Shown here piece by piece: positions 341 through 57,074 of a stretch of DNA of 64,000 nucleotides. Numbering within the stretch: the stretch's first letter is position 1; every line of letters begins with the position of its first letter. The stretch lies in NCBI GenBank assembly GCA_965203515.1, contig OZ241907.1, forward strand, positions 1,714,578 through 1,778,577. The letters run 5' to 3'. This DNA comes from Spirochaetia bacterium (GTDB lineage: Bacteria > Spirochaetota > Spirochaetia > SZUA-6 > Bin103). The notes beneath the pieces were generated by a model. That model was not told where the DNA came from and did no database searches. It saw only the letters and a list, made by a program, of their open reading frames with translations. The position numbers were made by a program, and so were the translations under genes.

Positions 341-1633
341 ATGAATGCACTACTTCCCTACGTCCGCGAACTCGAACGTGAGCTGAGCGCGCCGAGTCGC
401 TCCGGTGCGCAATGGGAATCATGGCGCGACCGCTGTCTGGACGGTGGACCGGCCCGCGAACTGCGAGCAGCCGTTCAGCGGGCGGACCTGAGGGAGCAGG
501 GCGCGTTCTTTACCGGCCCCGAACTTGGCAGGAGAGCAGCGCTCGCGTTCGGCCCGCCGATTGCTGACGACTCGGTGTACTTTGATCCGTCCTGCGGGAC
601 AGGAGACCTGCTGCTCGCCGCGGCCGGACGGCTGCCCCGAGCGCCGACGGTTGCCGGGACACTTGCGCTCTGGGGAAGCCGCTTGGCGGGCTGCGATCTT
701 TCTCCGGTGTTCGTCCGGGCGGCCAGTGCGCGCCTTGCCCTGCTGGCGATGCGCCGTTGCGGCACCCGCGAGCGGGTCGCGCCGGAAGCGGCAGGTGCTC
801 TGCTGCCGGCGTTAACGGTCGACGATGCGTTGCGCTGTCCCGACCGGTACGCGGCGGCGGGCCGGATCATGATGAACCCGCCGTTCCGTGCCATCCGTGC
901 GCCGGACGGCTGCGAGTGGTCGGCCGGCCGCATCAACGCGGCCGCTCTCTTCACGGAGACCGCCATTCTCAACTCCCGGGACGGAACACGGATCACCGCC
1001 ATTCTTCCCGATGTCCTACGCTCGGGAAGTCGCTACCATCGGTGGCGCTGCATGATCGGCGGCAATGCGGTCGTAGAAGAGATTACCGCATACGGAGCGT
1101 TTGATCGCCACGCCAACGTCGACGTATTCCTGTTGCGCCTGACCGTCGCCAAGGGCAGGGAGGTCCCGACCGCCGAGGAGTGGGCGGGTATCGACAGGGT
1201 TTGCAGTGACACCGTGGCGGGGCACTTCACGGTCCGCGTCGGCGCCGTCGTGCCCCATCGGCACGGGGAAACCGGGCCGGAATACCCGTACCTGCATGCG
1301 CGCTCGTTGCCGCCTTGGCAAACGGTTACGAAGATAACTAAAACGCGGCGCTTCGCCGGCACGGTCTTCGCGCCGCCATTCGTCGCGGTGAGACGTACGT
1401 CCGGCCCCCGGGATCGACACCGGGCGGTGGCTACGATCGTGCTCGGCCGGCGGGCGGTGGCGGTCGAGAATCACGTCATCGTGTGCCTGCCCGACGACGG
1501 CACGATCGAGCGGTGTCGGGCTCTGCTGGCTCGTCTGCGCAGCGGCAATACCGATGGCTGGCTCAACCGGCGCATCCGCTGTCGTCACCTGACGACCTCG
1601 GCAGTGGCCGAGATACCGTGGTGGGAGCCATGA
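341..1633 (+). CDS. N6-adenine DNA methyltransferase-like protein (gamma-class: motif X FFTGP, motif I DPSCGTGDLL, motif IV MMNPPF; C-terminal TRD-like region)
   Basis: Track ORF 2..1633. Its first 113 aa overlap ppc on the opposite strand, so the start is set at ATG 341 (MNALLPYVRELE...). Motif order X-I-IV is typical of Eco57I/TaqI-like N6A MTases. The stop TGA 1631-1633 overlaps the next start (ATGA). Confidence 0.6.
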   Translation: MNALLPYVRELERELSAPSRSGAQWESWRDRCLDGGPARELRAAVQRADLREQGAFFTGPELGRRAALAFGPPIADDSVYFDPSCGTGDLLLAAAGRLPRAPTVAGTLALWGSRLAGCDLSPVFVRAASARLALLAMRRCGTRERVAPEAAGALLPALTVDDALRCPDRYAAAGRIMMNPPFRAIRAPDGCEWSAGRINAAALFTETAILNSRDGTRITAILPDVLRSGSRYHRWRCMIGGNAVVEEITAYGAFDRHANVDVFLLRLTVAKGREVPTAEEWAGIDRVCSDTVAGHFTVRVGAVVPHRHGETGPEYPYLHARSLPPWQTVTKITKTRRFAGTVFAPPFVAVRRTSGPRDRHRAVATIVLGRRAVAVENHVIVCLPDDGTIERCRALLARLRSGNTDGWLNRRIRCRHLTTSAVAEIPWWEP

Positions 1634-3696
1634 GCACGGCGCGCATACGGTTTTCCGCCGACATCCTGCGCCGACTGGGCGAGGAATTGAATCCCCATCT
1701 GGACAAGGGGATCGTGGAGCTGGTCAAGAACTCCTACGACGCGGACGCGACCTGGTGCCGCATCGAGATGAGCGGAACAGGCGGCGCCGGCGGCACCATC
1801 ATCGTTACCGACAACGGCGACGGCATGACGCCGGCCGAGATCGAACGGGGGTGGCTGGTGCTCGGCAGATCCACCAAGAATGCGGCGCGACGTACGCGGC
1901 TGGGGCGCATCCCGGCCGGCAGCAAAGGTTTGGGGCGGCTGGCGGCCCTACGTATGGGATCGCACGCGCTGCTGAGCACCAGACCGCGGAAGCAGCCTGC
2001 GGACGAGTATCGGCTACCGATCGACTGGCGTGCGTTCGATGCCACGGATCTGGTCGATGACGTAGCGCTGAATATCGACCATGCCCCGAGGTCACCGGAC
2101 TCCGGCCCGGGAACCGAGATCAGGATCAAAGGACTGCGCAAGCGGATACAGCGCATGGAGGTCAAGCGTCTAGCGCGCGAGTTGATCCTGCTTGCTGATC
2201 CGTTCGGCGACGATCCTGCCGGGTTCGCGCCCACGCTGATCGCACCCGACTTCAATGACTTGGCCGGGCTGGTGAGGAATCGATACTTCGATGATGCCGA
2301 GTACCATCTGGCCGCCGGCGTCGACGAGACCGGCCGCGCAACCGCGGCGGTGGTCGACTGGAAGGGCCAGCTCCTGTTCAGCGCCGGCCATGACGAAATC
2401 GCCGCGGCTGACGAACGCCGGCCCTACCACTGTCCCGCGGTCCGTTTCGATCTTTGGGTCTTCATTCTGAATCGCGCCACCTTTTCCACGAGAATCAGCA
2501 CCCTGAAAGAAGTCCGTCAATGGTTGGGTGAGTTCGGCGGCGTGCACGTCTATCACAATGGGCTGCGGGTGATGCCGTACGGCAACCCCGGCAACGACTG
2601 GTTGGAGATGAACCTGCAGCGCGTGCGTAGCCCAGAAGAACGTCCGGGAACGAATACCTCCATCGGCCGCATCGTGGTGACCGATACCGATGCGCGGCTC
2701 GTCCAGAAGACCGACCGCTCCGGGTACGTCGAGGACGAAGCGTTTACCGATCTGGTGCGATTCGCCCAGGAGGCCATGGAGTGGATGGCCGACCGGCGGC
2801 TGGAGACAGCGGAGCGGCGCCGCGCCACGGCGCGCGGCATCGCCTCGAACAGGTCACGCGAGGCGCAACGAGCGTTGCGAACGGCCATCGACCAAGTTCC
2901 GCTTTCAGATCGCGAGCCCCTGGAGGCCGCATTCAAGCAGTATGATCGTTCACGAGACCAGGAGGCGGATACCTTGCGCAAGGAGGTGCAGTTGTATCGG
3001 ACGTTGAGTACGGCGGGCATCACCGCAGCGACCTTTGCGCACGAGTCGAGCGGCAATCCGATCAAGGTGATAAGGCAGTCGGTCGACGCGCTCGCGCGCC
3101 GCGCCGGTGAGATGCTAGGCGACCGGTACGAGCCTCTGTTGAGCCGACCGGTGACCGGTATTCAACGAGCCGTCCGCAGCCTTGCCGTTCTGGGAAACGC
3201 CACGCTGAAGCTGCTCGACCACGACAAACGCCGGTTATCGAGAGTCGATCTGCATGACGTCGTACGTGAGGTCGTAGACACGTTCAGACCATTCCTCAAT
3301 GGAAGAAACGTGGCGACCACCGTGTGCCTGTGTTCAGGTGATCCCTACGTCCGCGGCAGTCGGGCAGCGATCGAATCGATCGTCACCAACCTGCTCAACA
3401 ACAGCCTCACCGCGTTCGAAAACGCCGGCACGATGGAACGAAGGATCGAGCTTACCACCTCGATCGAAGATGGTCGTTGGCGGCTGGCGGTGTCCGACAA
3501 CGGTCCGGGGATCACCGACATTAGTACGCGCGACATCTGGCTGCCCGGCCGCACTACGCGCAAGAACGGCACCGGACTGGGACTGACGATCGTCCGGGAT
3601 GCGGTCCGGGACCTCGACGGCGACGTCGATGCCCATGAGCACGGTGGCCTGGGCGGCGCCGAAATCATCGTAGAGATACCGATTCTGGGAGGCTGA
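1630..3696 (+). CDS. dual GHKL-ATPase protein: N-terminal MORC/Hsp90-like Bergerat ATPase + candidate H-box + C-terminal histidine-kinase HATPase_c
   Basis: ATG 1630 overlaps the upstream stop (ATGA). N-terminal domain motifs: ELVKNSYDADAT (N-box), VTDNGDGMT (G1), GSKGLGRLAA (G2). Mid region: ATFAHESSGNP (H-box-like). C-terminal domain motifs: IVTNLLNNSLTAF (N-box), VSDNGPGI (G1), GTGLGLTIV (G2). No TM segments. Confidence 0.6.
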   Translation: MSTARIRFSADILRRLGEELNPHLDKGIVELVKNSYDADATWCRIEMSGTGGAGGTIIVTDNGDGMTPAEIERGWLVLGRSTKNAARRTRLGRIPAGSKGLGRLAALRMGSHALLSTRPRKQPADEYRLPIDWRAFDATDLVDDVALNIDHAPRSPDSGPGTEIRIKGLRKRIQRMEVKRLARELILLADPFGDDPAGFAPTLIAPDFNDLAGLVRNRYFDDAEYHLAAGVDETGRATAAVVDWKGQLLFSAGHDEIAAADERRPYHCPAVRFDLWVFILNRATFSTRISTLKEVRQWLGEFGGVHVYHNGLRVMPYGNPGNDWLEMNLQRVRSPEERPGTNTSIGRIVVTDTDARLVQKTDRSGYVEDEAFTDLVRFAQEAMEWMADRRLETAERRRATARGIASNRSREAQRALRTAIDQVPLSDREPLEAAFKQYDRSRDQEADTLRKEVQLYRTLSTAGITAATFAHESSGNPIKVIRQSVDALARRAGEMLGDRYEPLLSRPVTGIQRAVRSLAVLGNATLKLLDHDKRRLSRVDLHDVVREVVDTFRPFLNGRNVATTVCLCSGDPYVRGSRAAIESIVTNLLNNSLTAFENAGTMERRIELTTSIEDGRWRLAVSDNGPGITDISTRDIWLPGRTTRKNGTGLGLTIVRDAVRDLDGDVDAHEHGGLGGAEIIVEIPILGG

Positions 3697-4353
3697 GTGA
3701 CCAACGGCAGCAGTACGATTGAACGGGTGCTTATCGTCGATGACGACGAAACGGCAAGGGAGGGATTCGGGTATCCGATTGAAGAACTGGGAATCACTCC
3801 CGTGCCGGAGACCGGGCCGATAGAAAACCTGCGTCGGTTCGTTGAGGGAGTGCCAGACCGGGCGCAGGCGGTGCTGTGTGATTATCGACTGAAGACGTCC
3901 GCCTATTCTTCATACAACGGGGATGAGGTGGTCGCCGCCTGCTATCGGCGCGGCATTCCGGGTCTGCTGTGCACGCAGTACACCGACGTGATCGTCGAAA
4001 TAAATCGGCGGCTGCGTCGGTTCATTCCGTCTCTCCTCAAGACGAGCTCGCCAACTCCTGAGGCCATTCACGCCTCACTACGCGCCTGCCAGGACGAACT
4101 CTCCGGTTCGATTCATCCTGCCCGGCGGCCGTGGCGCACTCTGGTCCGGGTGCATGACGCACCGGCGGATGCGGGCTACTGTCACGTTGTCGTACCCGCC
4201 TGGAATGCTGACCAAGCGATTCGACTGTATTTACACGACATTCCCGAAGAGATATTGCCGTGCATGACGGCAGGGTCGCGCGTGCATGCCAAGGTCAACA
4301 TCGGTGCCGGTAGTTTCGAAGAGGTGTACTTCGATGAGTGGGAGCCGGAATGA
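3697..4353 (+). CDS. receiver (REC) domain protein with ~100-aa uncharacterised C-terminal domain
   Basis: GTG 3697 abuts the upstream stop at 3696. RVLIVDDDETAREGF acidic pocket, AVLCDYRL candidate phospho-Asp, GLLCTQYTD, LLKTSS. Stop 4351-4353 overlaps the next ATG 4350 (ATGA). Confidence 0.55.
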   Translation: MTNGSSTIERVLIVDDDETAREGFGYPIEELGITPVPETGPIENLRRFVEGVPDRAQAVLCDYRLKTSAYSSYNGDEVVAACYRRGIPGLLCTQYTDVIVEINRRLRRFIPSLLKTSSPTPEAIHASLRACQDELSGSIHPARRPWRTLVRVHDAPADAGYCHVVVPAWNADQAIRLYLHDIPEEILPCMTAGSRVHAKVNIGAGSFEEVYFDEWEPE

Positions 4354-5417
4354 GAGATTGCGCCGGGCGCCTGCGTGAGACGCTGGCCGTACTGGACGTC
4401 GGACACGGCTCCAGTGCCGTCCTCTTTTCCGGGGGCGACGTGGCGGTCTTCGATACGGGACCCGGCTCCGGCCTGCTCGAGTTTCTCAAAGAGCAGAACG
4501 TCAAGCATATCAAGACCGTCTTCGTTTCGCATGCGGACCGCGATCACATCGGCGGCCTGGTCGGTCTGCTGGCCGCGAATATCATCACAGTCGAGCGGGT
4601 CGTCCTCAATACCGACAGCTCGAAAGGCTCCGCCGCGTGGGATGACCTGCTCTACGAGCTCGATGCTCGGCATCGGGCCGGAACGACCAGGTTCGACACC
4701 ACGATCCGCGCAGGTGACAGCGAAGTCTTCGGGACGGTGACCGCGGCCGCGGCCGGCCCGAGTACGTATCTTACGGCAAGAGGACCCGGCAGTACAGACC
4801 GGTCCGGCAGGAGAATCACCAGTAACTCGATCAGTGCCGTGATCCGGCTCGCCGCCGACACCGGTCCGGTAGCACTCCTGACCGGTGACCTCGACATGAT
4901 CGGGCTCGATGCACTGCTGCACGAGGGAGGCGCCATAGATGCGCCGGTACTGGTGTTTCCTCATCATGGCGGAGGAGTAGGCGGCAGCAATGTCGGTGGT
5001 TACGTCACCAAGCTGGTCAAGCGCGTGCGCCCGTGTGTCGTGGTGTTCTCCATCGGTCGCCGGCGGAAGGGAACGCCCGATCCTGAGATAGTCCGTTACC
5101 TTCGGGGGGCGGCGCCGGCGGCACGCATTGTGTGCACGCAGTTGTCGCAGCACTGCGCGAAGGCGCGTCCGACGTTCGCACCGGCGCACTTGTCACCGGC
5201 GTTCGCGCTCGGTCGAAGTGACGGCGCCTGCTGTGGCGGCACGATTCTGATGCCGTTGCGTGATGCGCCCGGGATCACGCCGGACTCCGCCAATCACCTG
5301 GAATTCATCAGGAAAGCGGCTGAAACACCGTTGTGCATGGGATGGCCGATCCCCGCCGTAGAACGGCCGCTCAGGCCAAGTGCCGGGAGAAGAACCGGAC
5401 CCAGTTGCGGTGCATGA
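4350..5417 (+). CDS. MBL-fold metallo-hydrolase (ComEC/Rec2-like beta-lactamase fold), Cys-rich C-terminus
   Basis: VLDVGHGSSAVL...VFVSHADRDHIGGL (HxHxDH-like), PVLVFPHHGG. ATGA coupling to the upstream gene. C-terminal CTQLSQHCAK...GACCGG cysteine cluster. Confidence 0.6.
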   Translation: MRDCAGRLRETLAVLDVGHGSSAVLFSGGDVAVFDTGPGSGLLEFLKEQNVKHIKTVFVSHADRDHIGGLVGLLAANIITVERVVLNTDSSKGSAAWDDLLYELDARHRAGTTRFDTTIRAGDSEVFGTVTAAAAGPSTYLTARGPGSTDRSGRRITSNSISAVIRLAADTGPVALLTGDLDMIGLDALLHEGGAIDAPVLVFPHHGGGVGGSNVGGYVTKLVKRVRPCVVVFSIGRRRKGTPDPEIVRYLRGAAPAARIVCTQLSQHCAKARPTFAPAHLSPAFALGRSDGACCGGTILMPLRDAPGITPDSANHLEFIRKAAETPLCMGWPIPAVERPLRPSAGRRTGPSCGA

Positions 5418-6483
5418 CGTCGGTCACCTGTTCGTCGTCGTAGCCGCGGCGGGTCAGCACGTCGGCCAGCCGGCGGTAGTCGACCACGGTGTCGATCTCC
5501 GCCGGCGCGCCGGCGCGTCCGCCCTGGCCGTCGGTGTCCCCGCCGATGCCGGCGTGGCGCGCGTCGCCGGCGAGCTGACAGACGTGATCGACGTGGTCGG
5601 CAAGATCGTCGAGCGTGACGTCGGCCTTGCCGAACGGCCGTTGCAGCCCCTCGACGTTGGCCCAATCGATGCCGCCGCGGTACAGCATGGCGGTGTCCAT
5701 CGACACCCCGATCACGCCGTCCCGCTCGATGATCGCCCGCAGGATTGCGTCGGGGAACTGCCGCTCACCGGGTACGATCGCCCGGCAGTTCTGGTGCGTG
5801 GCGATCACCGGGCCGTCGAACCGGTCGAGCGCCTGCGTGATGGTCGCGTCGGAGGCATGCGTGGCATCCAGCACGATGCCCAGCCGCCGCATGTCCGCCA
5901 GCAGCCGGCCGGCCGGTGGAAACAGCCCGCCGTCGGTACCCGTGCCGGTGCCGTGTCCGTACGCGCTGGTGTCGTAGTGGGTCAGGCTGACGATGCGCAA
6001 GCCGGCCGCGTGGTACTCCTCCAGCGACTCCGTATCCAGGATCGGATCGGCGCCCTCCAGCCCCAGGATCACGCCCACCGGCAGGTCGTCGAAGCCGCTC
6101 CCCGCGCGCTCCGCATCCTCCCAGCTCCGCACGTGCGCGGCCAGGTCGGCCGCCGATTTCAGGACGCGGTAGCGCCCGCGCCGCTCCATGATCCGGTAAT
6201 AGGCGATCTGGCCCCAGGTCTCCGCGTAGGCCAGCTCGCCGGAGCGGTGCCCCCAGAGCTGCGCCCCCGGACGATGGATGCGCGCGGTCAGCTTGCCGAT
6301 GAAGGCGGCGATGCCGGCGCGCCGCTGCTCCGGGACCGACGCCATCAGTTCCGTCTGATAGCCCAGGTCCTCGCTCGCCATCCCCGCCGGCGGCGCGGAG
6401 CGCACCGCCTCGATCGGCTGGGTGAGGTCGGCGTTGAGCCGCGCCGCCACGTTGACCGGATAGTCGCCGTCGAAGATCAGCAT
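5371..6483 (-). CDS. membrane dipeptidase (peptidase family M19)
   Basis: Track ORF. VSLTHYDTSAYGHG, ATHQNCRAIVPGERQ and AMLYRGG resemble renal-dipeptidase family motifs. Convergent 47-nt overlap with the MBL gene end. Confidence 0.75.
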   Translation of the reverse strand: MLIFDGDYPVNVAARLNADLTQPIEAVRSAPPAGMASEDLGYQTELMASVPEQRRAGIAAFIGKLTARIHRPGAQLWGHRSGELAYAETWGQIAYYRIMERRGRYRVLKSAADLAAHVRSWEDAERAGSGFDDLPVGVILGLEGADPILDTESLEEYHAAGLRIVSLTHYDTSAYGHGTGTGTDGGLFPPAGRLLADMRRLGIVLDATHASDATITQALDRFDGPVIATHQNCRAIVPGERQFPDAILRAIIERDGVIGVSMDTAMLYRGGIDWANVEGLQRPFGKADVTLDDLADHVDHVCQLAGDARHAGIGGDTDGQGGRAGAPAEIDTVVDYRRLADVLTRRGYDDEQVTDVMHRNWVRFFSRHLA

Positions 6484-9779: not shown

Positions 9780-9878
9780 GGCAGCGCATCTTGTCACTTC
9801 GGACGGCCGCGGCGCCACCGGGCGCGCTGCCGAGGCGCTTGACCGCCGCTCCCGTCCGCCGTATGTTCGGGTGCTCCC

Positions 9879-10931
9879 ATGGCATTCGAGTCACGAGTCT
9901 ACGCCCTGCGTATCGAGCCGCACCCCAACGCCGACCGCCTGGAGCTGGCGGCGATCGGCGGCTTCCGTTGCGTCGTCGGCAAGGACAGCTACGTCGACGG
10001 CGACCTGGCCGCGTACATCCCGGAAGGGGCGGTCTGTCCCGAATGGCTGATCGCGGAGCTGGGGCTGGAAGGCAAGCTGGCCGGCAGCAAGAAGAACCGC
10101 GTCAAGGCGGTGCAGCTCCGCGGCGCGCTTTCGCAGGGGTTGGTCTATCCGGTCCGCGACGGGATGATCCGCGGGCGGCAGGTCGCCGAAGGGGACGAAG
10201 TCACCGAGCTGCTGGAGCTGGTCAAGTACGAACCGCCGATCCCGATCTCCATGCAGGGCGAGGTGCGGTCCGCGCACGGCGCCACCCTCCACTACGACAT
10301 CGAGGACTTCAAGAAATACCCGGAGGAGTTCCGGGACGGGGACCCGGTGATGGTCACGGAGAAGCTGCACGGCACGTGGTGCTGCCTGGGCTGGCACGCC
10401 GACCACGGCCCGATCGTCACCTCCAAGGGTATGTCGGACAAGGGCATGGCGCTGCTGATCGACGACGCGAACAAGACCAATCTGTACGTGCGCACGTGGC
10501 GCGCGCATCAGGAGGCGTTCGAGTCGGCGCGCGCCCGCCTTGCCGGCGACGGCCGGCCGTTCTACGTCCTGGGCGAGGTGTACGGCCGCGGCGTGCAGGA
10601 CCTCCATTACGGGGAGCCCAACCCGGCGTTCCGGGTGTTCGATGCGTACCTGGGCGAACCGGGAACCGGCCGCTACCTGAACCCGGAGGAACTGGCGGAA
10701 TCGCTGAGCGATCTGTTTCCGCTGGTGCCGGAGCTCTATCGCGGCCCGTTCAGCCTGGCGAAGCTGCAGGAGCTCACCGACGGCGCCACCACGCTCGGCG
10801 GCGGCCACGTACGCGAAGGCGTGGTCGTGAGGCCGGCCATGGAGCGCGTGTCGCACGCCTGCGGACGGGTGATCCTGAAGAGCGTCTCCGGCAAGTACCT
10901 GACGCGCAAGGGCGGCACGGAGTTCAACTGA
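9879..10931 (+). CDS. RNA ligase family protein (Rnl2/PF09414-like nucleotidyltransferase, motif I KLHGT) with N-terminal tRNA-binding-like OB domain
   Basis: EKLHGTWC matches the KxHG adenylylation motif (T4 Rnl2 KIHGTN). The N-terminus MAFESRVYALRIEPHPNADRLELAAIGGFRCVVG resembles the CsaA/EMAP-type OB fold seen in DraRnl-like ligases. Confidence 0.5.
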   Translation: MAFESRVYALRIEPHPNADRLELAAIGGFRCVVGKDSYVDGDLAAYIPEGAVCPEWLIAELGLEGKLAGSKKNRVKAVQLRGALSQGLVYPVRDGMIRGRQVAEGDEVTELLELVKYEPPIPISMQGEVRSAHGATLHYDIEDFKKYPEEFRDGDPVMVTEKLHGTWCCLGWHADHGPIVTSKGMSDKGMALLIDDANKTNLYVRTWRAHQEAFESARARLAGDGRPFYVLGEVYGRGVQDLHYGEPNPAFRVFDAYLGEPGTGRYLNPEELAESLSDLFPLVPELYRGPFSLAKLQELTDGATTLGGGHVREGVVVRPAMERVSHACGRVILKSVSGKYLTRKGGTEFN

Positions 10932-10955
10932 CTCCGAAAGGCCGGCTCCCCTTCT

Positions 10956-12104
10956 TTACGACGCCTCGCCGGCGAGGCGCCGGATCAGGTCCGGGAGGCT
11001 GACGAAGCGGACGCTGAAACCCGGAAAGTCACGCACCCAGGAGCGTTCCGTGTCCGCAGTCACGACGTAGTTGGCGCCGGTGGGATAGCGGGCGCGGAAG
11101 GCGCGCAGGTTCCGGGGATCGAATCCGCCGGCGCGCCACTTGCACTCCACGGTCACCGGGGGCGCGGCGCGATCGTCGATCACGAAGTCGATCTCATGGC
11201 CGCGCTTGTCGCGCCAGTAGCAAAGCCGACGCCGTTGCAGGCGTCCGAGGTATTCGTTGAGCACGCAGTGCTCCCACAGGGAGCCGCGATCCTCGTCGCG
11301 CAGCCGGTTCCAGCCCATGAACAGGCTGACGAAGCCGGTATCGAAGCCGTAGACCTTGGGCGTCGCCACGATCTCCGTCGCGCGGCGCGTGCTGAAGGGC
11401 CGAACGATCTGCACGACGTGGGTATCTTCGAGCACCTGCAGATAGTTGACGATGGTGGCGCGGCTCACCTCGCACGAGGCGGCGTACCTGGTCGCCTCGA
11501 ACAACCCGCCGCTGGCGGCGAACAACAACTCCACGAAGCGCAGGAAGGACCAGCGCCGTTGCAGCCGGAAGTGCTCCTGGATGTCCCGCGCCCAGTAGGA
11601 GTCGATCCAGTCCTGAAACCCGCGCTCCGGAAACTCGGAAGCAAGGAAGAAGGGGGGCAGCCCGCCGTGCAGAAAGCGGTGATCGATGCCGCGCGGGCCG
11701 AACTCGTGCTCGTCCTGGAGCAGCATCGGCGTCATCCACAGATCGCGCTTGCGGTCGGTGAGCGTATCCCGAAATCGGCGCGACGCTCCCAGTGACGAGG
11801 AGCCGGTAGCGACGATCTGCGTATCGGGATGGTAATCCGCCGCGATCTTCAGCAGCTCGGACGGATTGGGCAGACGGTGTATCTCGTCCAGCACGACCCG
11901 CCGCGCACCGACGTCACGCAGGAAGCTCTCAGGGGACTCCAGCGCGCGGCGGGTGCTCGGCAGTTCGCAGTCGAGGTACTCGACGTCCGGCAGAGACTGA
12001 CACAGGACCGTCTTGCCGGCGCGGCGGACCCCCGACAGCCAGACGACCGACTTCTCGCGCCACAGCTTCTCTACGGCCGCGATCCAGTAGCTTCTCCGTA
12101 CCAT
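10956..12104 (-). CDS. AAA+ ATPase with DUF4143 (AAA_14 family), paralog 1
   Basis: GVRRAGKT Walker A, VVLDEIHRLPN Walker B. Paralogous to the gene at 42406..43734. Confidence 0.7.
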   Translation of the reverse strand: MVRRSYWIAAVEKLWREKSVVWLSGVRRAGKTVLCQSLPDVEYLDCELPSTRRALESPESFLRDVGARRVVLDEIHRLPNPSELLKIAADYHPDTQIVATGSSSLGASRRFRDTLTDRKRDLWMTPMLLQDEHEFGPRGIDHRFLHGGLPPFFLASEFPERGFQDWIDSYWARDIQEHFRLQRRWSFLRFVELLFAASGGLFEATRYAASCEVSRATIVNYLQVLEDTHVVQIVRPFSTRRATEIVATPKVYGFDTGFVSLFMGWNRLRDEDRGSLWEHCVLNEYLGRLQRRRLCYWRDKRGHEIDFVIDDRAAPPVTVECKWRAGGFDPRNLRAFRARYPTGANYVVTADTERSWVRDFPGFSVRFVSLPDLIRRLAGEAS

Positions 12105-12150
12105 GTGTAAACCAGGATGTCACATGGTGGCACCATATGTCAATCATGGT
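12105..12150. promoter_or_regulatory. palindromic operator-like element upstream of the DUF4143 ATPase
   Basis: TGTCACATGGTGGCACCATATGTCA is an imperfect 25-bp palindrome with a perfect core ATGGTG-G-CACCAT. It lies in a lower-GC intergenic region. Confidence 0.3.
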
Positions 12151-12222
12151 GGCGTTCGGTAGCAGTTGCGCCATCTTCCCGGACGCGACGGAACCGCGGT
12201 GGTGCGTGTGGCTGAACTGAAG

Positions 12223-13254
12223 TCAGCGCTCCCGATCTGACGCGTGGGTCTGTCGGCGGAGCAACTCGAACGCCTGCTGGCCGATGCCGGTAGCCTGCTC
12301 GATGATCGACCACTCGACGCCGGCGCGCAGAAAACTCTCGATGGTGGCCACCTGGCCTTCCTGGCGGCCCTCCTGGCGGCCTTCCTGGCGGCCCTCCTGG
12401 CGGCCTTCCTGACGGCCTTCCTGACGGCCTTCCTGACGGCCTTTCAGCACGCCTTCCTGGATCAACTGCTCCCCATACGTCTTCATATCCCCTCCTGGTC
12501 CCCGTACTTCCCGCCGCAGCGCCGCGCCGAACTCCCGCAACCTCTCATCATCCTGCGTGCGGAGCACGTACAACACCACCACCGCGAACCGTTCGCTCTG
12601 TCCCGCCCGGTCCAACTCTCCCATGAGCTGCACCGCCGTCTCCAGCGCCGCCCTCACCTCGCGGCGCGCCGCCGCCATCAGCGCAAGCTGTGCTATCCGG
12701 CCCAGCGTTTCGCCCTGTACCGCTCCCACCCCCATCTGCGACTGGTCCACCAGCAGGTGCTCGAACTGCGGCGTCCAGGGCCACCCTCTGACCGATTCCG
12801 CAAACAAGTCGCTGAACTGAGCCGCATGTCGCCAGTGGGACTCACCCTGATAGAACACCACCGGCACGATCGGCGGCAAGTCCGGCGTCTCCCCTGCTTC
12901 GTCAGAGCGCAAGAAATCATCCCAGATGCGGCAGCAGTACTTCAGCAGCCGGAAGCGCATCAATCGATCCGGCCTCGATTGGTGCTCGAACAGCAGATAG
13001 AGCCGCAGCGAACGCCGCGCGTCACCCGGCTCGGCGGCGCCCGGTCGCTGCTCGATGGCATACAGCAGGTCGGACTCGCTGGCGCGCAGGTCGTCGTCCA
13101 CATAGCTGTCGGGCATCAGCGTCAGGCTGGCCCAGTCCAGCGTACCGGCGAGCCACGACGGCACGTGGGCGCGCAGCAAGCCAGCCGCTTCGGCCGGCTC
13201 GGAGAACACCTTGCGAAACAGATGGTCGTGCGGCTGGTGCAGATCGCGTGTCAT
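12223..13254 (-). CDS. Rpn/YhgA-family recombination-promoting nuclease / putative transposase (PD-(D/E)XK), copy 1
   Basis: Start ATG 13252-13254 (MTRDLHQPHDHLFRKVF...). LYLLFEHQSRPDR and LLKYCCRIW are family motifs. C-terminal QEGR tandem repeat. Paralog at 58974..59933. Confidence 0.7.
   Translation of the reverse strand: MTRDLHQPHDHLFRKVFSEPAEAAGLLRAHVPSWLAGTLDWASLTLMPDSYVDDDLRASESDLLYAIEQRPGAAEPGDARRSLRLYLLFEHQSRPDRLMRFRLLKYCCRIWDDFLRSDEAGETPDLPPIVPVVFYQGESHWRHAAQFSDLFAESVRGWPWTPQFEHLLVDQSQMGVGAVQGETLGRIAQLALMAAARREVRAALETAVQLMGELDRAGQSERFAVVVLYVLRTQDDERLREFGAALRREVRGPGGDMKTYGEQLIQEGVLKGRQEGRQEGRQEGRQEGRQEGRQEGRQEGQVATIESFLRAGVEWSIIEQATGIGQQAFELLRRQTHASDRER
12354..12437. repeat. 12-nt tandem repeat GGCC(T/C)TCCTG(G/A)C x7 (encodes (RQEG)n on the minus strand)
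   Basis: Seven consecutive 12-nt units read directly from the sequence, inside the Rpn copy-1 coding region. Confidence 0.85.
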
Positions 13255-13343
13255 GCGTGGTGCCGCGCAGCATAGCATGGATCGAACGGACGCCGAAGCG
13301 CAAGTATCTTCGCCGGCAAGCGGCCGTCTGTGGCGCCGGCGCG

Positions 13344-14070
13344 TCATGCCCTGCGAGCGACGAGAATATAGCCAAAGACCAGACTGTCGACGCGCAGGAC
13401 CCGGCACGCAGGGGACTCGTTCAGATGATCCAGCACCACTCGCCAATCGAAGCCGAGGTGCGGCCCCCAGCCGTCGGCGTCCGGGTCCCGAAACACGGAG
13501 ATCGATTGGCCCGTGAGCAGGTGCCACACGTAGCGGGATTCGCTCTGATCGCGGAAGAAGCTCTCGTACGGCCTCCTTCGGAATACCTTCCTCGCACCGT
13601 ACTTGAGCAATCCGGGCAAGCCGATCTCGTTCGGCACCGAGATGAGCAGCGTGCCGCCGGGCTTGCACGAGGCGAGCAGCGTGTCGATAGCATTCGGGAC
13701 GTTGCCTACGTGCTCCAACGTCTCGAAGCAGGTGACGACGTCGAACAGACGCTCCCCGGGGGGGGGGGGGGGGGGGGGCGTTGAGATCGACGTAATCGAA
13801 CACGGCGTTGTCGATGTTGCGAGCCTTCGCCGCGGCCAGCAGATCGGACGAGTGATCGAAGCCGAACAGGCACATCGAACCGGCTTCGGGCAGCGCTCGC
13901 AACAGTTCTGCGAAGAAGAATGCGTTGGAGCACCCGAAGTCGGCGACGGCCGCCCGTACCGGTAACGAGAGCGAGCGCATGGTCTCGACGACCCGGCGCA
14001 GTCGGGCACGATGGAAGAAGCTGAACGGATGAAGTCCCTTGTAGGAGCTTTCGTGTACGACCACCGCCAT
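13344..14070 (-). pseudogene. class I SAM-dependent methyltransferase, frameshifted at a poly-C (poly-G on + strand) tract
   Basis: N-terminal part (VADFGCSNAFFFAELL motif I) is in the frame of track ORF 12223..14070. C-terminal part (FDVVTCFETLEHVGNVPNAIDTLLASCKPGGTLLISVPNE) is in the frame of ORF 13344..14117. The switch is at the 21-G run 13758-13778, which encodes poly-Pro in both frames. Confidence 0.6.
13758..13778. repeat. 21-nt G homopolymer inside a coding sequence
   Basis: Direct count: g at 13758-13778. Confidence 0.9.
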
Positions 14071-14074
14071 GATC

Positions 14075-15730
14075 CTACGATGAGTCCACCTTTCGCGAAA
14101 GATCGGAAGTGAGGCACTCCACCAGGGAGATGGCTGACAGTACGACGGCGGCCGCGAAACCGACGGTGACCTGATCGCCCGATAGGTGCTGACCGTAGTT
14201 ACCGACCGAATGCAGATGGTTCACTATGAGGCTGGTAGTTCTGGTGACATACGTGCTCTGGCGTTGGGCGCGCTCAGAGCCGGTTATGAGCCGCAGTATC
14301 CGGCACTCCCGGCCTGGGGAGTCGTGAGGAATCTTGCCTCGTTCGTCCGGCAGCCTCTCGATTCCTGCGTGCTTCCATTCGTCGAGCCATGCATCGGGTA
14401 GACGGCGGTCAGGTGGGAGCTCGGCGGTCCAGATCAGATGCAGCGCCCGATTGGCAATGCTCCTGATCCAGACGAGTGCACTCTCTGGAGCCGGGACGAG
14501 GTCGCGGATCGCCAAGCGCACGTAGTCGCAAAGGTCACTGTCCACGGATCCCTGCGACACTTGGTCGAGGCGCAGCTCAAGCAGCATCTGAACATGCGTC
14601 TCGAATTTGGCGGCCGTGCCCAGAAGACGGGTCAGGTCGGCAATGGCGGGTGCCTGATCCTGAGCGTAGCGCTGCATCAGGCGACAGGAACTGCGCAGTC
14701 GGTTCCTCGACTGTTGGCCGAACCCTCGCTCCTCCAGTGCTTGCCGCCGCGGCTGAGACAGCTCGGCCAGCGGTATTTCGTCGGCAGTCAGCGCGCCGAG
14801 ATCAGCACGCAATTCGCTGTCGCAATCATCCCACAATGCGTCGAGGAGCTGGCGCGGCCCGTCCAGCACCGCTTCCGCAGCATGATCTATTTCCGATTTG
14901 GAAAGACGTTGTCCGCGGTGTCCGGCCCACAGCCTCTGCAGGAGCGCGCAAACGAGCAAAGGCACCCTTCCTGTCCAGTTGGCTATCTCCTTCCGCACCG
15001 ACTCGTCCAACTCGCAGCCGGCGTCACGGAGCGGCTGCAGGAACGCTTCCAGATCACGGTCGTCGAGCGCGGCCACGCGCACCGGCGTATCGTAGAATAT
15101 CCCCCAGAAGTCCGAGGTCCGCGACTCCTCCGTCTTGCACAGCTCGCGCAACGGCCGCCGGCTGCCGGTGACCAGTCGCAGACTGGTCCTCTGCGCCAGC
15201 GCGCGCAGTTGGTCCCACAGGTTCCGCGTCAACCCGGTACCGGCAAGCGCATAGTCGAAGCCATCGAGCACCGCGAGCAGGCGCACGCCGTCCTTTTCGA
15301 GTTGGTCGAATATGATGCCCAGCACCTCATGCCTGGAAACTTCTTCGAAGTCGTCGAAATACCCCACAAGGTCTGGACAGACCCCCTGCAACGCCGCCTT
15401 GATCTCGTCCGCAAACCGCCGCATGAATTCGTGGTCCGAGGCCGGTACCCCGCGGCGGAGATCGACGTACGCAGCGGTGACATACTGCTCGACCCCGTCC
15501 CGGTAGGTGGCGGCGGCATGGTGCAGCAGGACGGACTTTCCGTAGTGCGCCGGCCCCACGACCGACACGTGATCCGGCGACGGTTTCCGCAGGTGCTTGT
15601 CGATGCGGCTCATGAGCGCTGCGCGGCCCAGCATGGGGGGGACCGAAGGTCCCAGGACTTGGTACGGGTCAGGGTCAGGCATGGCGTATGGCCTCCTGGC
15701 GGGCGCGCTCCACGAGGTCGTCGAAGTCAA
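14075..15730 (-). CDS. STAND-like P-loop NTPase (Arch_ATPase/AAA_16-like) with C-terminal helical domain
   Basis: VSVVGPAHYGKSVLL Walker A, RLLAVLDGFD Walker B, LVTGSRRPL sensor-like. Resembles the ATPase module at the C-terminus of the upstream giant gene. 4-nt gap to the downstream SAM-MTase. Confidence 0.55.
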   Translation of the reverse strand: MTSTTSWSAPARRPYAMPDPDPYQVLGPSVPPMLGRAALMSRIDKHLRKPSPDHVSVVGPAHYGKSVLLHHAAATYRDGVEQYVTAAYVDLRRGVPASDHEFMRRFADEIKAALQGVCPDLVGYFDDFEEVSRHEVLGIIFDQLEKDGVRLLAVLDGFDYALAGTGLTRNLWDQLRALAQRTSLRLVTGSRRPLRELCKTEESRTSDFWGIFYDTPVRVAALDDRDLEAFLQPLRDAGCELDESVRKEIANWTGRVPLLVCALLQRLWAGHRGQRLSKSEIDHAAEAVLDGPRQLLDALWDDCDSELRADLGALTADEIPLAELSQPRRQALEERGFGQQSRNRLRSSCRLMQRYAQDQAPAIADLTRLLGTAAKFETHVQMLLELRLDQVSQGSVDSDLCDYVRLAIRDLVPAPESALVWIRSIANRALHLIWTAELPPDRRLPDAWLDEWKHAGIERLPDERGKIPHDSPGRECRILRLITGSERAQRQSTYVTRTTSLIVNHLHSVGNYGQHLSGDQVTVGFAAAVVLSAISLVECLTSDLSRKVDSS

Positions 15731-18700
15731 CGTTCATCCGCAGCCAGTCGGCCATCAACGGGATGGCCAGTCGGTACGTGACCCCGCGGTTGGATTGGTC
15801 GATCTCGAGCAGCTCCAGTTCACGGAGCTCGGTAATGTCGTCAGCGAGAGCTTCGTCATCCCGGACCGGTACACGATATTCCTCGAATTTCAGGCCGATG
15901 AGATCGCGGTTGAAGGCGTCCGGGGCGTCCGCCATACGGTCGCTGAGCGCCAGTATCAGTCTGCGCCGTTCGCTGCCGGCGTAGCCCCACAGGGTCTGGA
16001 AGTGCTCGTTGTCCCGCACCATCTCGGTTGCGGCCCGGTCCACGAGGTCACCCGTGATGATTCGTTCGCTCCCCGCGGCGGCCTGGTCGAACACCCGGCT
16101 GCAGAGCGACTGGATGAGAAACGGATGGCGCGAGCACAGTGCTACCAGCTGGTCACGCGCCTGTGGCAGGTAGCGGATTCGACGCGCGACCGGTTCGGTG
16201 ACCAGCCGCCGGGCTTCCTCCTCCGGCAGCGCACTGACCCCGATCCGGTGGCCGAACCCGAACAGCGCCGACCAGTACTCTTCGCGCAGCCGCTTCAGCC
16301 TGCGGGAGCCGGTGAGGATCGCGCCCAGACCGGATTGGTGCTGCAACAGGTGACGAATGTTCTCGGGGACCTGCTGACTGGTAATACCGCCGTCGATACC
16401 ATCCTGGAGCTTGTCGAACTCGTCGAGCATGAGCAGGACCCGGCGCCGGCGCGGCTTGGCGGCCTCGATCGCCGTCGACAGGTACAACGCCAACGTCTCG
16501 TAGGGGTGATCGTCGGAGAACGCGCCGCGCAATGCGGCGAGGAAGGCCAACTTGAACGGTCGCCCCGACTCCGGGGCCGGCGCATCAGGAATCCAGGTTT
16601 CGATGCCGGCGTCGGCAAGGGCAATACCCGTCTGCCTCGCCAACAGCCTGAACACGTTGGACGTGGACATGCTGTCCATATCCTGGAACGAGCAGTAGAC
16701 GGGAACCCATCCGGGAAGCGCTTCCTCTTTCCGCAACTGCTGCAGGATCGACGTCTTGCCGGTACGCCGATTCCCTTCCAGCAGGATCACGTTGGCCTGC
16801 TCACCGCCGAGATGGCGCCTGATCTGATCCATGATGCCGTCGCGGCCGAAGAACATTTCGGCCCGGTCCACCGGAGGCCCGACGATGTAGGGACTGGCGT
16901 CGAGGTCGCCGGTAGCGGCGGCCTCATTGCCGGAGCGGACCGGCACGGAGACCTTCGTCCGGCCCTCTACGGGCGTGGCGTCGAGGCGGCGCGCCTGCCA
17001 CGCCACGTCGATATCCAGCGGCTGCGTATCGTCTTGCGCCCGGACGACAAGCGGAATCTCATGCCGCTGACCTTCGGCCAAGTAGGGCACTTCTCTCACT
17101 AACGTACGATCGGCCTGACTCACTAACGTGAGATCGGCCTGCCGCACGGTCACCCGCACCTTGCTCAGCGGCACCGGCGACAGGTTGGCAACCCGAAGCC
17201 GCACCTCAGCGACGGTGCCGGCCAGCACTTCCGCGGGTACGGTGATGTCGAGCCTGCCTCTGCGCTGCATGGCGTGGGCCTCATCCTCGACGAGACCCAC
17301 CAGCCCCCAAGTAACAGAACGCAGGCGCTCACCGAGCGGATCTTCGGCCCGGTCGAGGACGCCAAGCGCCTCGCGCAACTTCGCCACAGCGAATTCGAGA
17401 ACCACCAGGCGGCCTGCGCCTTCAGGAACCGAATCGAGATAGTCCAAGGAGGCAGCCGCCCTCCTCGCCGCCTCCAGCCATCTGTCGATCGCACCATCGC
17501 CGGCCGTCGGTGCGGCTGGGGGAGTATCGAGCGATCGTATCTCCGCCGCGAGCTTTGCAAGCATATCTATGCCGCGCGCGCCGTCAGAACGGCGCCCTGC
17601 CGCCAGACTCGCCGCAAGAGGTCCTTCCAGCCAGAGGGCGACCGGATGCCGCGCCATCCCGGAGAGCAGGCGGAAGAGCACGGCCAGCGCGTCTCCGCGC
17701 AGCTCGCCAAGTTCCTTGAGCACGGCATCCTGCACCGAGACAGGCGGCACCGGAACTTTCAACGCGCGGAGCACGGGAATCGACAGATGACGAATCGTCG
17801 ATCCGGTGGCGTGACCCGACAACCAGAACCAATACGCGGGTGAGCGCAACAGGGCGGCCAGGAATCGCGGCTTGACGATCCCTTCGTGCACGCGAACGAA
17901 CGCGATGGTCTCGTCGGCCATCACCTCATACTCGTGCTCGTGCTCGTTTTCCTCAACCAGAAAGATGCTGCCTACGTTGTCCGTCATCGGGACGAGCAGG
18001 TCGCCGCCACGAAGATATGCCCGTGGGTCAGGGTTACCCAACAACGAGCTGAAATCGAAGGGCCAGGTCTGCGGCCGGCGAATACGCACATCCGTCACGT
18101 CGGCGGAGCGGAGCAGATTCGGCTCGGGTGCGTCAAAAAAATCGTTTTCCACCCCAGGAAACACCTCTGCGACCTCGTCCAGACTTTTCACCTTCAGAGA
18201 AGGGTCTGCCTTGACGAGCCGCTCGATCTCGGCGTCCAGCCGCTCGCTTCCCGACTTCTTGGCGATCAACTCGTAGTCGCGGAGCGTGAGTTCGCGCACG
18301 GGGGCGGACCATGACTCGACACCCGGCGAAGCGTAACTCGCAGACGCCTGGCGGTGATCCCCGATCATCTCGGCGACGCCCCGCGCATCTTCCTGGGCCG
18401 CCTGCCATGCCATCGGTGAGACGGTCAGAAACCGTACGGCGTCACGCGGTTCATCGCGGGAAAACACGATAACGCTCATGGATATACCGGTGAACGGCTC
18501 GAACGAGCCGGCCGGAAGCGCGATCACATCCTGCACGCGGTATTCCGAAAGAAGCGCCTTCCTCAGAGGCAAGGAATCGGCATGGAACAGCGGCCGCTCC
18601 GGTAACGCGACTACGGCTCGTCCGCCGGGCCGCATGTTGGCCATCACGTGCTGCAGGAACAGCTCTTCGACGCGATAGCTGGGAAACCGGAAGCTATCGT

Positions 18701-48787: not shown

Positions 48788-51922
<3,135 letters not shown>

Positions 51923-51953
51923 CGCCCGTCCTCCCCTGTGACGATGACGAATC

Positions 51954-53021
51954 TCACCGTGCCGGCCCGCCGCTGATCACGTTCGCCTTCCAAAGTTGGC
52001 CCAGAGAGTACTCCTTTAGCCAGTCCTGCAGGCGATCCGGGTCCAGCCGCTCGAAGGCCGACTCGCCATCCCGGCGATCGACCACCACGATGTCTTCCGG
52101 CCGAAACTCGCTGACCAGGTCGGCGGATTGCGTGGAGACGATCACCTGCCGCGCTTCACTCGCCGACTGCAGCATCTCCGCCAGCAGCGTAAGCGCGAAC
52201 GGATGCAGCCCCAGTTCCGGCTCATCGATCAGAATCAGCCGCGGCTGCATCGCGGTCGGCTGCAGAAGCAGGGTGGCAAGGCACAGGAAGCGGAGCGTGC
52301 CGTCCGAAAGCTGAAGCGGTCCCAGCGGCGTATCGGCATCGTCGACGTGGTGCCATTCGAGCTCCATGCGCTCATCGACATCCCTGCGATAGACGAAGCC
52401 GCCGAAGAACGGCGCGGCCAGCCGCACGGCGTCGACGATCTCGCGGTGCTCGTGCGGATGGCGTTCATGGAGCAAGCGCAGGAATGGCCCCAGGTTGGCC
52501 CCGTCCGGCTTCAACCGCAGGTTGTCGCGCACCGCCTGCGGGCAGCGCATGCCCGCAACCTCACTGGTATCGTGAAAGTGATACACCCGCCAGTCCCGCA
52601 TCGCCGGCAGCACGTAAGCCGCAAAGTCGCCGCCCTCGATACTCGCCGCCTGCGCTTCCAGGTGGCCCGACCAAGTCGATCTTTCCGGAAAAACGTGCTC
52701 TCGCGCGAACGCCATTCCGTCCGCCACCGGCTCAAGCGAAAAGCCGTATCGGCGGCTGTTGCCGTTGAAGGACAACTCCACGTCCAGACCCGAAGTCCGC
52801 CGGCGACCGCCGAACAGCAGAGCGTCCGCTCTCCCCTCCCGCTTGACGAACAGTTGGAGTCTCTTCGCGGCAAGTTCGGACACCATCCGAAACAGACTCA
52901 TCAAGTTGCTCTTGCCCGCTCCGTTCGCTCCGACGAGGACATTCAGTCCGCGCAACTCGAAGTCCTCCAGCACCCGAATCGACTTGAAGCCGCGAACGGA
53001 CAGTCGGTCTATCGCAGCCAT
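51954..53021 (-). CDS. AAA_21/ABC-type ATPase (OLD/Abi-like NTPase domain only)
   Basis: [13 protein letters not shown] Walker [14 protein letters not shown] Walker B/D-loop. Internal ATG ([14 protein letters not shown]) chosen. Confidence 0.6.
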
Positions 53022-53207
53022 GTCGTGTCTCTCGCTTCGAGAAGCTGGGCGTCCCATACGCGAATGACGACCTTCGTCGCCGCGACCGTCTCGTGCATCA
53101 TCCTCATTCGCGCCACAGGTACCGACTCAGACTTCGGCGCCGAAGTCCCGCCCCGCCCACAGTCCGACTCTGCCCTCTCCCGCTGCCGGTCATCGCCGCT
53201 AGCGACT

Positions 53208-54323: not shown

Positions 54324-54850
54324 CGGACGTTCCCTCCTCTCGATCGATCCATGATCAGACGCAAATTTTTGACGTCAAACACGTTCTCATTCGGAATCCG
54401 CACCGTGACAGAAGATCGGTTGTCGGTCTCATCCGCTCCCACCAAGCTCAGCCAGTAGGCACACCGCCTCAGAGCCAACTCGTCGGTCGTAACTTTAATC
54501 CATTGGTCCTCATCTCTGGGTAGATCGAGCACTACGAGCACGCGTGGTGTCTGGGTCTGAATGCGGAGCAGGTCGTAGTTGCGCCGTTTCAACTCAAAGC
54601 GGTAGTGACCATCGCCCACCGGATTCAGATTGACGGTCGCCTTCAACTGCAAGTCGATGGCCGGCCTCATCCGTCCGCCCGAATGAATTCGGAGATCGAC
54701 ACCGTCACGGTCGAAGTCGCAGTCTGCTGTCACGTACCCCGCACCCGCCGCCACGGCGCGCGCGTACACACGGGACAGCGCTTCTTCCCGATCCGCGGGC
54801 GTAAGCAAAGCATCCTTCACACGGCCTCTATATTCCACTGTCATCCACAC
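54320..54850 (-). CDS. DUF4365-like protein
   Basis: Size and context. Lower GC than surroundings. Confidence 0.4.
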   Translation of the reverse strand: MWMTVEYRGRVKDALLTPADREEALSRVYARAVAAGAGYVTADCDFDRDGVDLRIHSGGRMRPAIDLQLKATVNLNPVGDGHYRFELKRRNYDLLRIQTQTPRVLVVLDLPRDEDQWIKVTTDELALRRCAYWLSLVGADETDNRSSVTVRIPNENVFDVKNLRLIMDRSRGGNVR

Positions 54851-56932: not shown

Positions 56933-57074
56933 TCAACCGTGCGCCGGCTACCGAGCCGACGAATCTCGCACGACCGAGCGCTTCAACATACCATGGCGAA
57001 CGCCCCCCATTCACCGGCCGGCGGGCACCGCGGCGCTTGACGTACCGATCTCCGCACGTACAGTACACGTACTC

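Follow-up and report, generated by a model that had tools for sequence, protein, structure and literature searches.

A horizontally acquired methylase, kinase, receiver, and hydrolase module in a Spirochaetia genome, a probable sister variant of the Ambrosia anti-phage system

In a stretch of 64,000 nucleotides from a Spirochaetia bacterium (assembly GCA_965203515.1, contig OZ241907.1, positions 1,714,578 to 1,778,577 of the forward strand; hereafter "the window"), four genes at positions 341-5417 form a compact module that encodes a predicted N6-adenine DNA methylase, a histidine kinase with two GHKL ATPase domains, a receiver (REC) protein, and a metallo-beta-lactamase (MBL) hydrolase. We propose, with a probability of roughly 0.65, that this module was acquired horizontally and belongs to the Ambrosia class, as a system that acts against mobile elements (probably against phages) and contains a restriction-modification-like pair of methylase and nuclease, the nuclease being licensed by the module's own His-Asp phosphorelay. 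Ambrosia is an anti-phage system validated in P. aeruginosa (van den Berg et al. 2025, bioRxiv 10.1101/2025.09.30.679545), and it consists of AbrR (a HipB-like XRE protein), AbrA (an N6 methylase), AbrB (a HATPase/histidine kinase), AbrC (a REC domain and, according to the authors, a helix-turn-helix of the winged type, wHTH), and AbrD (an HNH protein). That the module is a defence system seems likely to us from the homology of gene 1, gene 2, and the REC domain to this validated system; from the conserved order of kinase, REC, and MBL genes across phyla; from its mobility, as seen in varied flanks, plasmid copies, foreign base composition, and decayed copies; from the swaps of nuclease and methylase that are typical of defence systems; and from the nuclease-like character of the putative effector. 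An earlier reading made from the sequence alone (the sequence-only reading) had put the module forward as a candidate for phosphorelay-gated, modification-restriction-like defence, and this core proposal is supported by the co-conservation across phyla and by the homology to Ambrosia.

The homology was found with the Ambrosia sequences given in Table S1 of bioRxiv 10.1101/2025.09.30.679545. The gene 1 product is 37% identical to AbrA over 361 amino acids (BLASTP, E 5e-70), and the two proteins have in common the C-terminal motifs LPDVLRSGxRY, VGxVVPHR, PPFVAVRRTS, and VAVENH. The gene 2 product is 28% identical to AbrB over 367 amino acids (BLASTP with the N-terminal 399 amino acids of AbrB, E 3e-34), and the gene 2 profile matches the Ambrosia-type kinase of Deinococcus over its full length (hhalign probability 100, E 4.7e-48). 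The REC domain of gene 3 matches that of AbrC with a probability of 89% (E 2.6e-6). Point mutants of Ambrosia in the motif X Thr of the methylase, in N40 of the GHKL domain, in D60 of the REC domain, or in the catalytic residues of the HNH protein no longer defend (van den Berg et al. 2025). The matching residues in the window are T58 of gene 1, N34 of gene 2 (aligned with N40 of AbrB), and D62 of gene 3 (aligned with D60 of AbrC), and they are invariant or nearly so in the families of the module.

All four genes are on the plus strand: gene 1 at 341-1633 (430 amino acids), gene 2 at 1630-3696 (688 amino acids), gene 3 at 3697-4353 (218 amino acids), and gene 4 at 4350-5417 (355 amino acids). 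Their junctions were read directly. Genes 1 and 2 overlap by ATGA at 1630-1633, genes 3 and 4 overlap by ATGA at 4350-4353, and the stop codon of gene 2 (TGA, 3694-3696) abuts the GTG start codon of gene 3 at 3697; a GGAG-type ribosome-binding site lies 6-10 nucleotides 5' of each of the four starts. The same locus is present on three metagenome contigs, where independent gene calls give the same lengths (430/688/218/355 amino acids) and the same flanks, a divergent phosphoenolpyruvate carboxylase gene (ppc) and a convergent M19 dipeptidase gene. The tight chaining is also kept in orthologous loci of other phyla and is therefore not a chance feature of the window sequence. In the window, the N-terminal part of ppc, on the minus strand, extends to 254, and the 86 nucleotides between its start and gene 1 (255-340) form a divergent intergenic region that presumably holds the promoter; the M19 gene, convergent to gene 4, occupies 5371-6483. 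A scan of 255-340 found no sigma-70-like consensus, such a scan being uninformative for a high-GC organism, and promoter and terminator scans of the locus gave chance-level results. No gene for an XRE/AbrR-type regulator is present in the module: the 86-nucleotide gap between ppc and gene 1 is too short for one, and gene 4 overlaps the M19 gene.

The gene 1 product carries motif X (GAFFT58G, residues 54-59, within FFTGP), motif I (D82-P-S-C-G-T-G-D-L-L, that is, DPSCGTGDLL at residues 82-91), and motif IV (N179-P-P-F, residues 179-182). The order X-I-IV with NPPF, together with a C-terminal domain that resembles a target-recognition domain, is that of the gamma-class methyltransferases of type II restriction-modification (R-M) systems. 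On its own, the window copy gives no Pfam match above threshold; among 29 orthologues, 28 match N6_Mtase and 14 match Eco57I. In the alignment of these orthologues, GAFFT of motif X, DPxCGxGDLL of motif I, and NPPF of motif IV are invariant, and the C-terminal domain is conserved. In a search of the Protein Data Bank (PDB), the family profile matched M.BseCI (1.6e-9), HsdM (4e-9), and also BpuSI. Judged by these motifs and matches, gene 1 is predicted to encode a gamma-class N6-adenine DNA methyltransferase rather than a methylase that acts on RNA or protein.

Gene 2 is the most complex member of the module. Pfam places HATPase_c_3 at residues 26-124 and HATPase_c at residues 579-684. The N-terminal GHKL ATPase is of the MORC/MutL-like kind, with the boxes N34, D61xGxG65, and G97xKGLG102, and is followed by a conserved middle region of about 300 amino acids, by a dimerization and histidine phosphotransfer (DHp) domain with the H-box FAH471ES, and by a C-terminal catalytic and ATP-binding (CA) domain with the boxes N587/N591, D623xGxG627, and G647TGLGL. 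In PDB profile searches, residues 437-685 align with the DHp and CA domains of ZraS, FixL, CpxA, and other histidine kinases, and residues 26-145 match MORC2, MORC3, and MutL (E 5e-6 to 1e-3); in NCBIfam, the N-terminus is also connected with the BbrUII/HgiDII family of restriction enzymes. H471, both sets of ATP-binding boxes, and the middle region are invariant or nearly so in 30 homologues. Thousands of homologues exist, typically of exactly 688 amino acids and at least 60% identical. No hydrophobic segment was found in the proteins of genes 1, 2, and 3. The gene 2 product thus appears to be a soluble sensor kinase in which a MORC-like GHKL domain is fused to a histidine kinase.

In the gene 3 product, the REC domain (residues ~9-135) has an invariant D15, D16, phospho-acceptor D62, and T93. 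Although no Pfam match is above threshold, 33 of 38 family members give sub-threshold matches to Response_reg; the REC fold is confirmed, and the receiver is an atypical one. With H471 and the N, G1, and G2 boxes of the kinase invariant, and with an acidic pocket, an acceptor Asp, and a conserved Thr in the REC domain, the two proteins have the predicted features of a classical two-component pair. The rest of gene 3 is a five-stranded, beta-rich C-terminal domain (residues ~143-216) with invariant R143, R147, R151, W169, R195, N201, F212, and W215; it is not a winged helix, and a comparison with the C-terminal domain of AbrC gave no detectable match. Among 1.84 billion representative sequences, the REC family comprises 329 clusters (50% identity) at E<=1e-30, all of them stand-alone proteins of about 220 amino acids.

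The gene 4 product matches Pfam Lactamase_B (3.7e-11) and NCBIfam ComEC_Rec2 (2e-11), and it has the metal motifs D16-V-G-H-G, S60-H-A-D-x-D-H66, D180/D182, and H205-H206. In the C-terminal third, C262, C269, H280, C294, C295, H316, and C329 are invariant in the homologue alignment, and this Cys/His cluster is probably a metal site. The AlphaFold2 model has a predicted local distance difference test (pLDDT) score of 78, with low confidence over the Cys region, as is expected for a metal site. The top Foldseek match of the model is the beta-lactamase-like domain of ComEC (9ic4; E 1.1e-14, target-normalised TM score 0.77, 22% identity), followed by the Pce esterase and then by RNase J/Z. From these matches, gene 4 is presumed to encode a ComEC-like binuclear-metal phosphodiesterase that acts as a DNase effector. 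PF23023, a precomputed label on some homologues, was not reproduced in our own scan and was not used. The last ~25 amino acids of the protein are a lineage-specific extension, common among the aligned homologues only to the close homologue P0215; most homologues end at about 330-335 amino acids, and, through the extension, gene 4 runs 47 nucleotides into the 3' end of the convergent M19 gene (5371-5417).

Much of this had been anticipated by the sequence-only reading: four overlapping, co-directional genes in one operon; gamma-class N6-adenine motifs in gene 1; a cytoplasmic gene 2 product with two Bergerat-fold ATPase domains and an H-box; a receiver with a distinct C-terminal domain; and a ComEC-like MBL protein with a Cys cluster. 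The gene calls, domain matches, alignments, and structural comparison described above agree with all of these. It had also named a condition that would speak against it, namely that gene 1 is an RNA or protein methylase in a conserved housekeeping operon, and gene 1 instead belongs to a DNA methylase family.

How widely the module is distributed was examined by a scan with gene 2 over one genome per species, which gave 50 loci. These span more than 10 phyla: Acidobacteriota, Gemmatimonadota, Latescibacterota, Planctomycetota, Verrucomicrobiota, Chloroflexota, Bacteroidota, Cyanobacteriota, Actinomycetota, Pseudomonadota, and Desulfobacterota; metagenome-assembled genomes (MAGs) labelled Spirochaetia are also among them. 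The kinase-REC-MBL order and its tight spacing are the same in every locus with enough sequence, and 47 loci are intact. Immediately upstream, 31 of the 50 have a methylase of the gene 1 type, often with the same 4-nucleotide overlap and in three loci in divergent orientation; in the other 19 it is replaced or missing, and many of these have intact nuclease genes. The conserved core is therefore the kinase-REC-MBL triad and not the full four-gene unit. A lack of co-conservation, which would have spoken against the sequence-only reading, was not found; its four-gene unit holds for the triad and for the methylase in only part of the loci.

The module has been horizontally acquired. None of the 50 loci has flanks in common with the window, and the distribution is patchy across phyla, with identities of up to 81-89% and differing flanks. 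The G+C content at third codon positions (GC3) of the four window genes is 0.66-0.77 vs 0.925 for the adjoining housekeeping genes, and the proposal of a compact insertion between ppc and the dipeptidase gene is upheld by this foreign GC3 and by the lack of shared flanks. Plasmid copies are present on a conjugative Burkholderia megaplasmid (beside ParDE, integrase, and helicase genes), on a Hymenobacter plasmid (beside patatin-like and ThiF-like genes), and on a Pseudanabaena plasmid (L056, 9818-11771), where the MBL gene is split by IS982. Several decayed copies (L048-L050; L062, 12816-13739; L065, 8281-10001) have a truncated kinase or MBL gene, an N-terminally shortened MBL gene, or no called methylase, which is consistent with a costly accessory system that is often inactivated. 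No direct or inverted repeats that bound the module were found, only chance-level matches of 14-19 nucleotides, and a metagenome scan with the window's M19 dipeptidase gave relatives of at most 55% identity, none of them with ppc or the module nearby. A phage origin was rejected, as no true phage genome in the phage collection has a homologue of the module.

In Gemmatimonadota, the site of the module is fixed, with a MacB-type ABC transporter gene on one side and a gene for a Laminin_G_3 protein on the other. In other genomes, what lies at the same site is a toxin-antitoxin pair of the PIN/RHH type or a gene for AAA_14/DUF4143 (L064 and L065, 7591-8281; L062, 3490-4875), which suggests a local hotspot of integration.

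The kinase also occurs with other partners. Its family is paired with an HNH nuclease in Deinococcus, where a plasmid carries a true homologue of Ambrosia (genes for HTH, an Eco57I-type methylase, kinase, REC, and HNH), and with a GIY-YIG nuclease in Rhizobium TH2. It is also found with longer REC-containing proteins in Acaryochloris (388 amino acids) and on pTet-type plasmids of Campylobacter (340 amino acids), with further partners that could be assigned to no family, and beside C5 or N6 methylases. The REC protein's C-terminal domain varies with the type of nuclease, being beta-rich with MBL and helical with HNH. A comparison by hhalign of the gene 3 profile with proteins 3' of the kinase in distant variants was mostly uninformative, because each target was a single sequence; of these proteins, only those of Campylobacter and Acaryochloris have an N-terminal REC domain. 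The methylase position is variable as well: in L015, an M.Eco57I-like enzyme is encoded downstream, and 14 cyanobacterial triads without an adjacent methylase are surrounded by integrase, ParAB, AAA_15/21, QueC-like, and Doc-like genes.

Two loci in MAGs labelled Spirochaetia (L001, 1446-8004; L022, 254-7971) have in the methylase position a DUF1156/N6_N4 methylase of ~1100 amino acids and an SNF2-family helicase of ~930-1150 amino acids, followed by the triad; in L001, the helicase open reading frame ends 4 nucleotides inside the kinase gene. This arrangement suggests a larger composite system. A relative of the kinase is also present in a medically relevant plasmid family, the pTet-type conjugative plasmids of Campylobacter jejuni/coli (~50 kb; L057), dozens of which, of clinical and food-chain origin, carry a distant dual-GHKL kinase. 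It is 23% identical to gene 2 over 96% of its length and is accompanied by a 340-amino-acid REC protein and a convergent Dcm methylase gene, in a cluster between VapD/recombinase genes and HicAB.

From these observations, a mechanism can be proposed. The AbrA-like methylase, a DNA methyltransferase by homology, would mark DNA at its own site, serving for self-marking or as a co-factor. The N-terminal MORC/MutL-type GHKL domain of the kinase, in the place of a ligand-binding sensor domain, might detect a cue of infection or of DNA state, upon which the kinase, to judge from its motifs, would autophosphorylate on H471. The phosphoryl group would then pass from H471 to D62 of the REC protein, whose equivalent in AbrC, D60, is essential. 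Finally, the effector-specific beta-rich domain of the REC protein would switch on or release the MBL DNase, and the invading DNA would be degraded.

Direct, phosphorylation-dependent licensing of the nuclease by the REC protein is the tentative part of this scheme, to which we give somewhat less than an even chance. We prefer it to transcriptional control because the output domain of the REC protein co-varies with the type of nuclease, because the REC gene always has the MBL gene as its neighbour (with the ATGA overlap in the window), because the operon that would have to be induced itself contains the kinase and REC genes, and because there is no XRE partner. A bolder and rather doubtful extension is that the phosphorelay acts on the enzyme throughout the group: the GHKL domain would read the state of DNA (e.g., unmethylated or replicating foreign DNA), and the phosphorylated REC protein (REC~P) would be an adaptor that licenses the DNase, on a common chassis with swappable nucleases (MBL, HNH, GIY-YIG) and methylases. 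If this is true, two-component phosphotransfer would here, for the first time, gate a restriction nuclease at the post-translational level, and the transcriptional model of Ambrosia would have to be revised.

Several points weigh against the proposal as a whole. The MBL variant is known from sequence only, and the C-terminal domain of gene 3 is without an assigned fold or partner. The MBL fold also covers phosphodiesterases that are not nucleases, including the Pce esterase, the second-best match of gene 4. Several lineages, that of the window included, carry the module among housekeeping genes and not in a classic defence island; the cyanobacterial triads have no methylase beside them; and the PADLOC 2.0 models give weak generic matches only. 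In Ambrosia itself, expression is induced on infection, as seen with reporter fusions, the authors favour transcriptional control, and methylation by AbrA gives phages no protection (van den Berg et al. 2025), which makes the proposed gating step and the role of the methylase tentative. Because of these Ambrosia data and the methylase-less triads, a simple role of the methylase in self-protection is disfavoured.

The induction of Ambrosia on infection also speaks for a different scheme, gating at the level of transcription as put forward for Ambrosia: REC~P would use its C-terminal domain to bind DNA and would turn on the operon, methylase and nuclease would be produced only in the course of an infection, and the nuclease would attack the system's own methyl mark in a type IV-like manner. 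The loss of defence in the D60A mutant of AbrC would also fit it, as would the sensitivity that AbrA-methylated phages retain, and the many invariant Arg and Trp residues in the C-terminal domain of gene 3 could bind nucleic acid. That domain, however, is no winged helix, has no detectable similarity to the C-terminal part of AbrC, and changes with the effector type; the operon to be induced would be the one that contains the kinase and REC genes themselves; the window has no XRE partner; and a nuclease dependent on the mark of its own system does not go with triads that have no methylase. We therefore regard this scheme as unlikely. A less probable view is that the module is a selfish, type II-like R-M addiction module, in which the methylase protects the host, the MBL protein cuts unmethylated DNA, and the kinase and REC proteins delay or tune the process, as C-proteins do, for establishment after transfer. 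Such a role would suit a mobile, sometimes plasmid-borne element with many flanks, the translational coupling of methylase and kinase, and the resemblance of the GHKL N-terminus to BbrUII/HgiDII restriction enzymes; but 19 loci have no gene-1-type methylase, many of them with intact nuclease genes, and in Ambrosia the methylase mutant loses defence and is not toxic, and methylation does not protect phages.

Hardly probable at all, in our judgement, is a housekeeping two-component system that happens to lie with an unrelated hydrolase beside an orphan methylase and serves epigenetic regulation or DNA uptake and repair, with no role in conflict. The position of the module between ppc and a dipeptidase gene, or between an ABC transporter gene and metabolic genes in Gemmatimonadota, would fit this view, and ComEC-type MBL domains do act in natural transformation. 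Against it stand the foreign GC3, the patchy distribution with high identities and different flanks, the lack of membrane, OB, and competence domains in the module proteins, and the homology to a validated defence system. The Ambrosia-class defence system with its own phosphorelay is thus the reading that we retain.

If active, the module would be the most widespread branch so far of a newly recognised class of immune systems in which R-M enzymes are under two-component control: it is found in more than 10 phyla, mostly in soil and aquatic bacteria, and its REC family comprises hundreds of clusters at 50% identity. With its Cys/His cluster, the ComEC-like MBL nuclease would also be a new type of defence effector. 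The natural swaps of its parts are useful in this respect, as their comparison can show which cue the kinase reads, what purpose the methylase has, and whether or not gating is direct. At present, the module is missed by the defence-finder models of PADLOC 2.0.

Elsewhere in the window, a second low-GC island lies at 48788-58074 on the minus strand (GC about 0.59-0.62) and encodes a type I R-M system. The system's genes are those of HsdR (48788-51922) and of an HsdS-like protein whose N-terminus is a nucleotidyltransferase domain (54841-56721). The genes in between encode an AAA_21/AAA_15 ATPase (51954-53057), an unassigned protein of 371 amino acids, and a DUF4365 protein (54320-54850), and the whole has the look of a defence island with inserted accessory genes. 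A moderately low-GC region (~0.64-0.65) at ~9860-16500 may be another acquired cluster; as called on L051, a contig with identical sequence, its genes encode an RNA ligase (PF09414/PHA02142), an AAA_14/DUF4143 ATPase, an unassigned protein of 343 amino acids, a class I S-adenosylmethionine (SAM) methyltransferase, and an AAA_16 protein.

Among described systems, several resemble the module in part. Bellieny-Rabelo et al. (2021, PMC8011034) predicted pairs of a HATPase_c_3 + HEF_HK + HATPase_c kinase and a Response_reg_2 protein linked to R-M genes; as in the window, a soluble dual-HATPase kinase-like protein lies beside a small atypical REC protein, methylases, and nucleases, with a paraMORC-related interpretation. 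However, the DHp domain of gene 2 aligns with classical HisKA-type kinases, and no MBL partner occurs in that study. Membership in HEF_HK and Response_reg_2 was rejected: PF19191 (HEF_HK) matches none of 30 kinases, even at E<=10, and PF19192 (Response_reg_2) matches one of 38 REC proteins, weakly (E 0.033). Iyer, Abhiman & Aravind (2008, PMC2292703) described laterally mobile prokaryotic MORC/paraMORC GHKL ATPases with methylases and diverse nucleases, and noted for paraMORC1 a C-terminal extension and HNH neighbours. The GHKL domain in the window differs from these in being fused to a complete histidine-kinase core and in working with a REC protein, and the unit has no superfamily 2 (SF2) helicase.

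With Detocs (the kinase DtcA, the buffer REC protein DtcB, and the REC-effector DtcC), the module shares a His-Asp phosphorelay over a defence effector; unlike Detocs, it has no buffer REC protein, a separate MBL effector instead of a REC-PNP fusion, a methylase, and a GHKL sensor. The Detocs models found no match in the PADLOC search of the window proteins, and the distinction that the sequence-only reading had drawn from Detocs thus holds. The same search identified no defence system, giving weak generic matches only, on which grounds the models for MADS, BREX, Detocs, and the Avs/Lamassu MBL proteins were rejected; of MADS (mad1-mad8), only mad2, a methylase, matched weakly (3e-7), and the other mad genes were not found. 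The MBL domain of ComEC (9ic4), the best structural match of gene 4, has the same SHxDxDH-type metal motif, but gene 4 encodes a stand-alone, soluble protein without the membrane and OB domains of ComEC, with an extra Cys/His cluster, and in an operon with a methylase and a kinase.

The closest relative is Ambrosia. The earlier statement that the architecture can be assigned to no described system is outdated, as a methyltransferase, a HATPase_c_3/histidine kinase, a REC protein, and a nuclease are the architecture of Ambrosia. The two systems have a homologous N6 methylase of the AbrA type, a homologous fusion of HATPase_c_3 and kinase of the AbrB type with the same Pfam architecture, the same order of methylase, kinase, REC, and nuclease genes, and an aligned phospho-acceptor in the REC domain (D62/D60). 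They differ in the effector, which is an MBL protein with a Cys/His cluster in the window and an HNH protein in AbrD, with no HNH gene in the window module; in the REC C-terminal domain, which is beta-rich in the window and helical/wHTH in AbrC; and in the AbrR-type XRE regulator, which is not present in the window module. Their ranges also differ: the MBL variant, as known from its sequences, occurs in more than 10 phyla, whereas Ambrosia has been reported only from Gammaproteobacteria, with 537 instances (van den Berg et al. 2025). Because the defining HNH and XRE features were looked for and are absent, the module is, to judge from its gene content, a sister variant of Ambrosia rather than a strict member.

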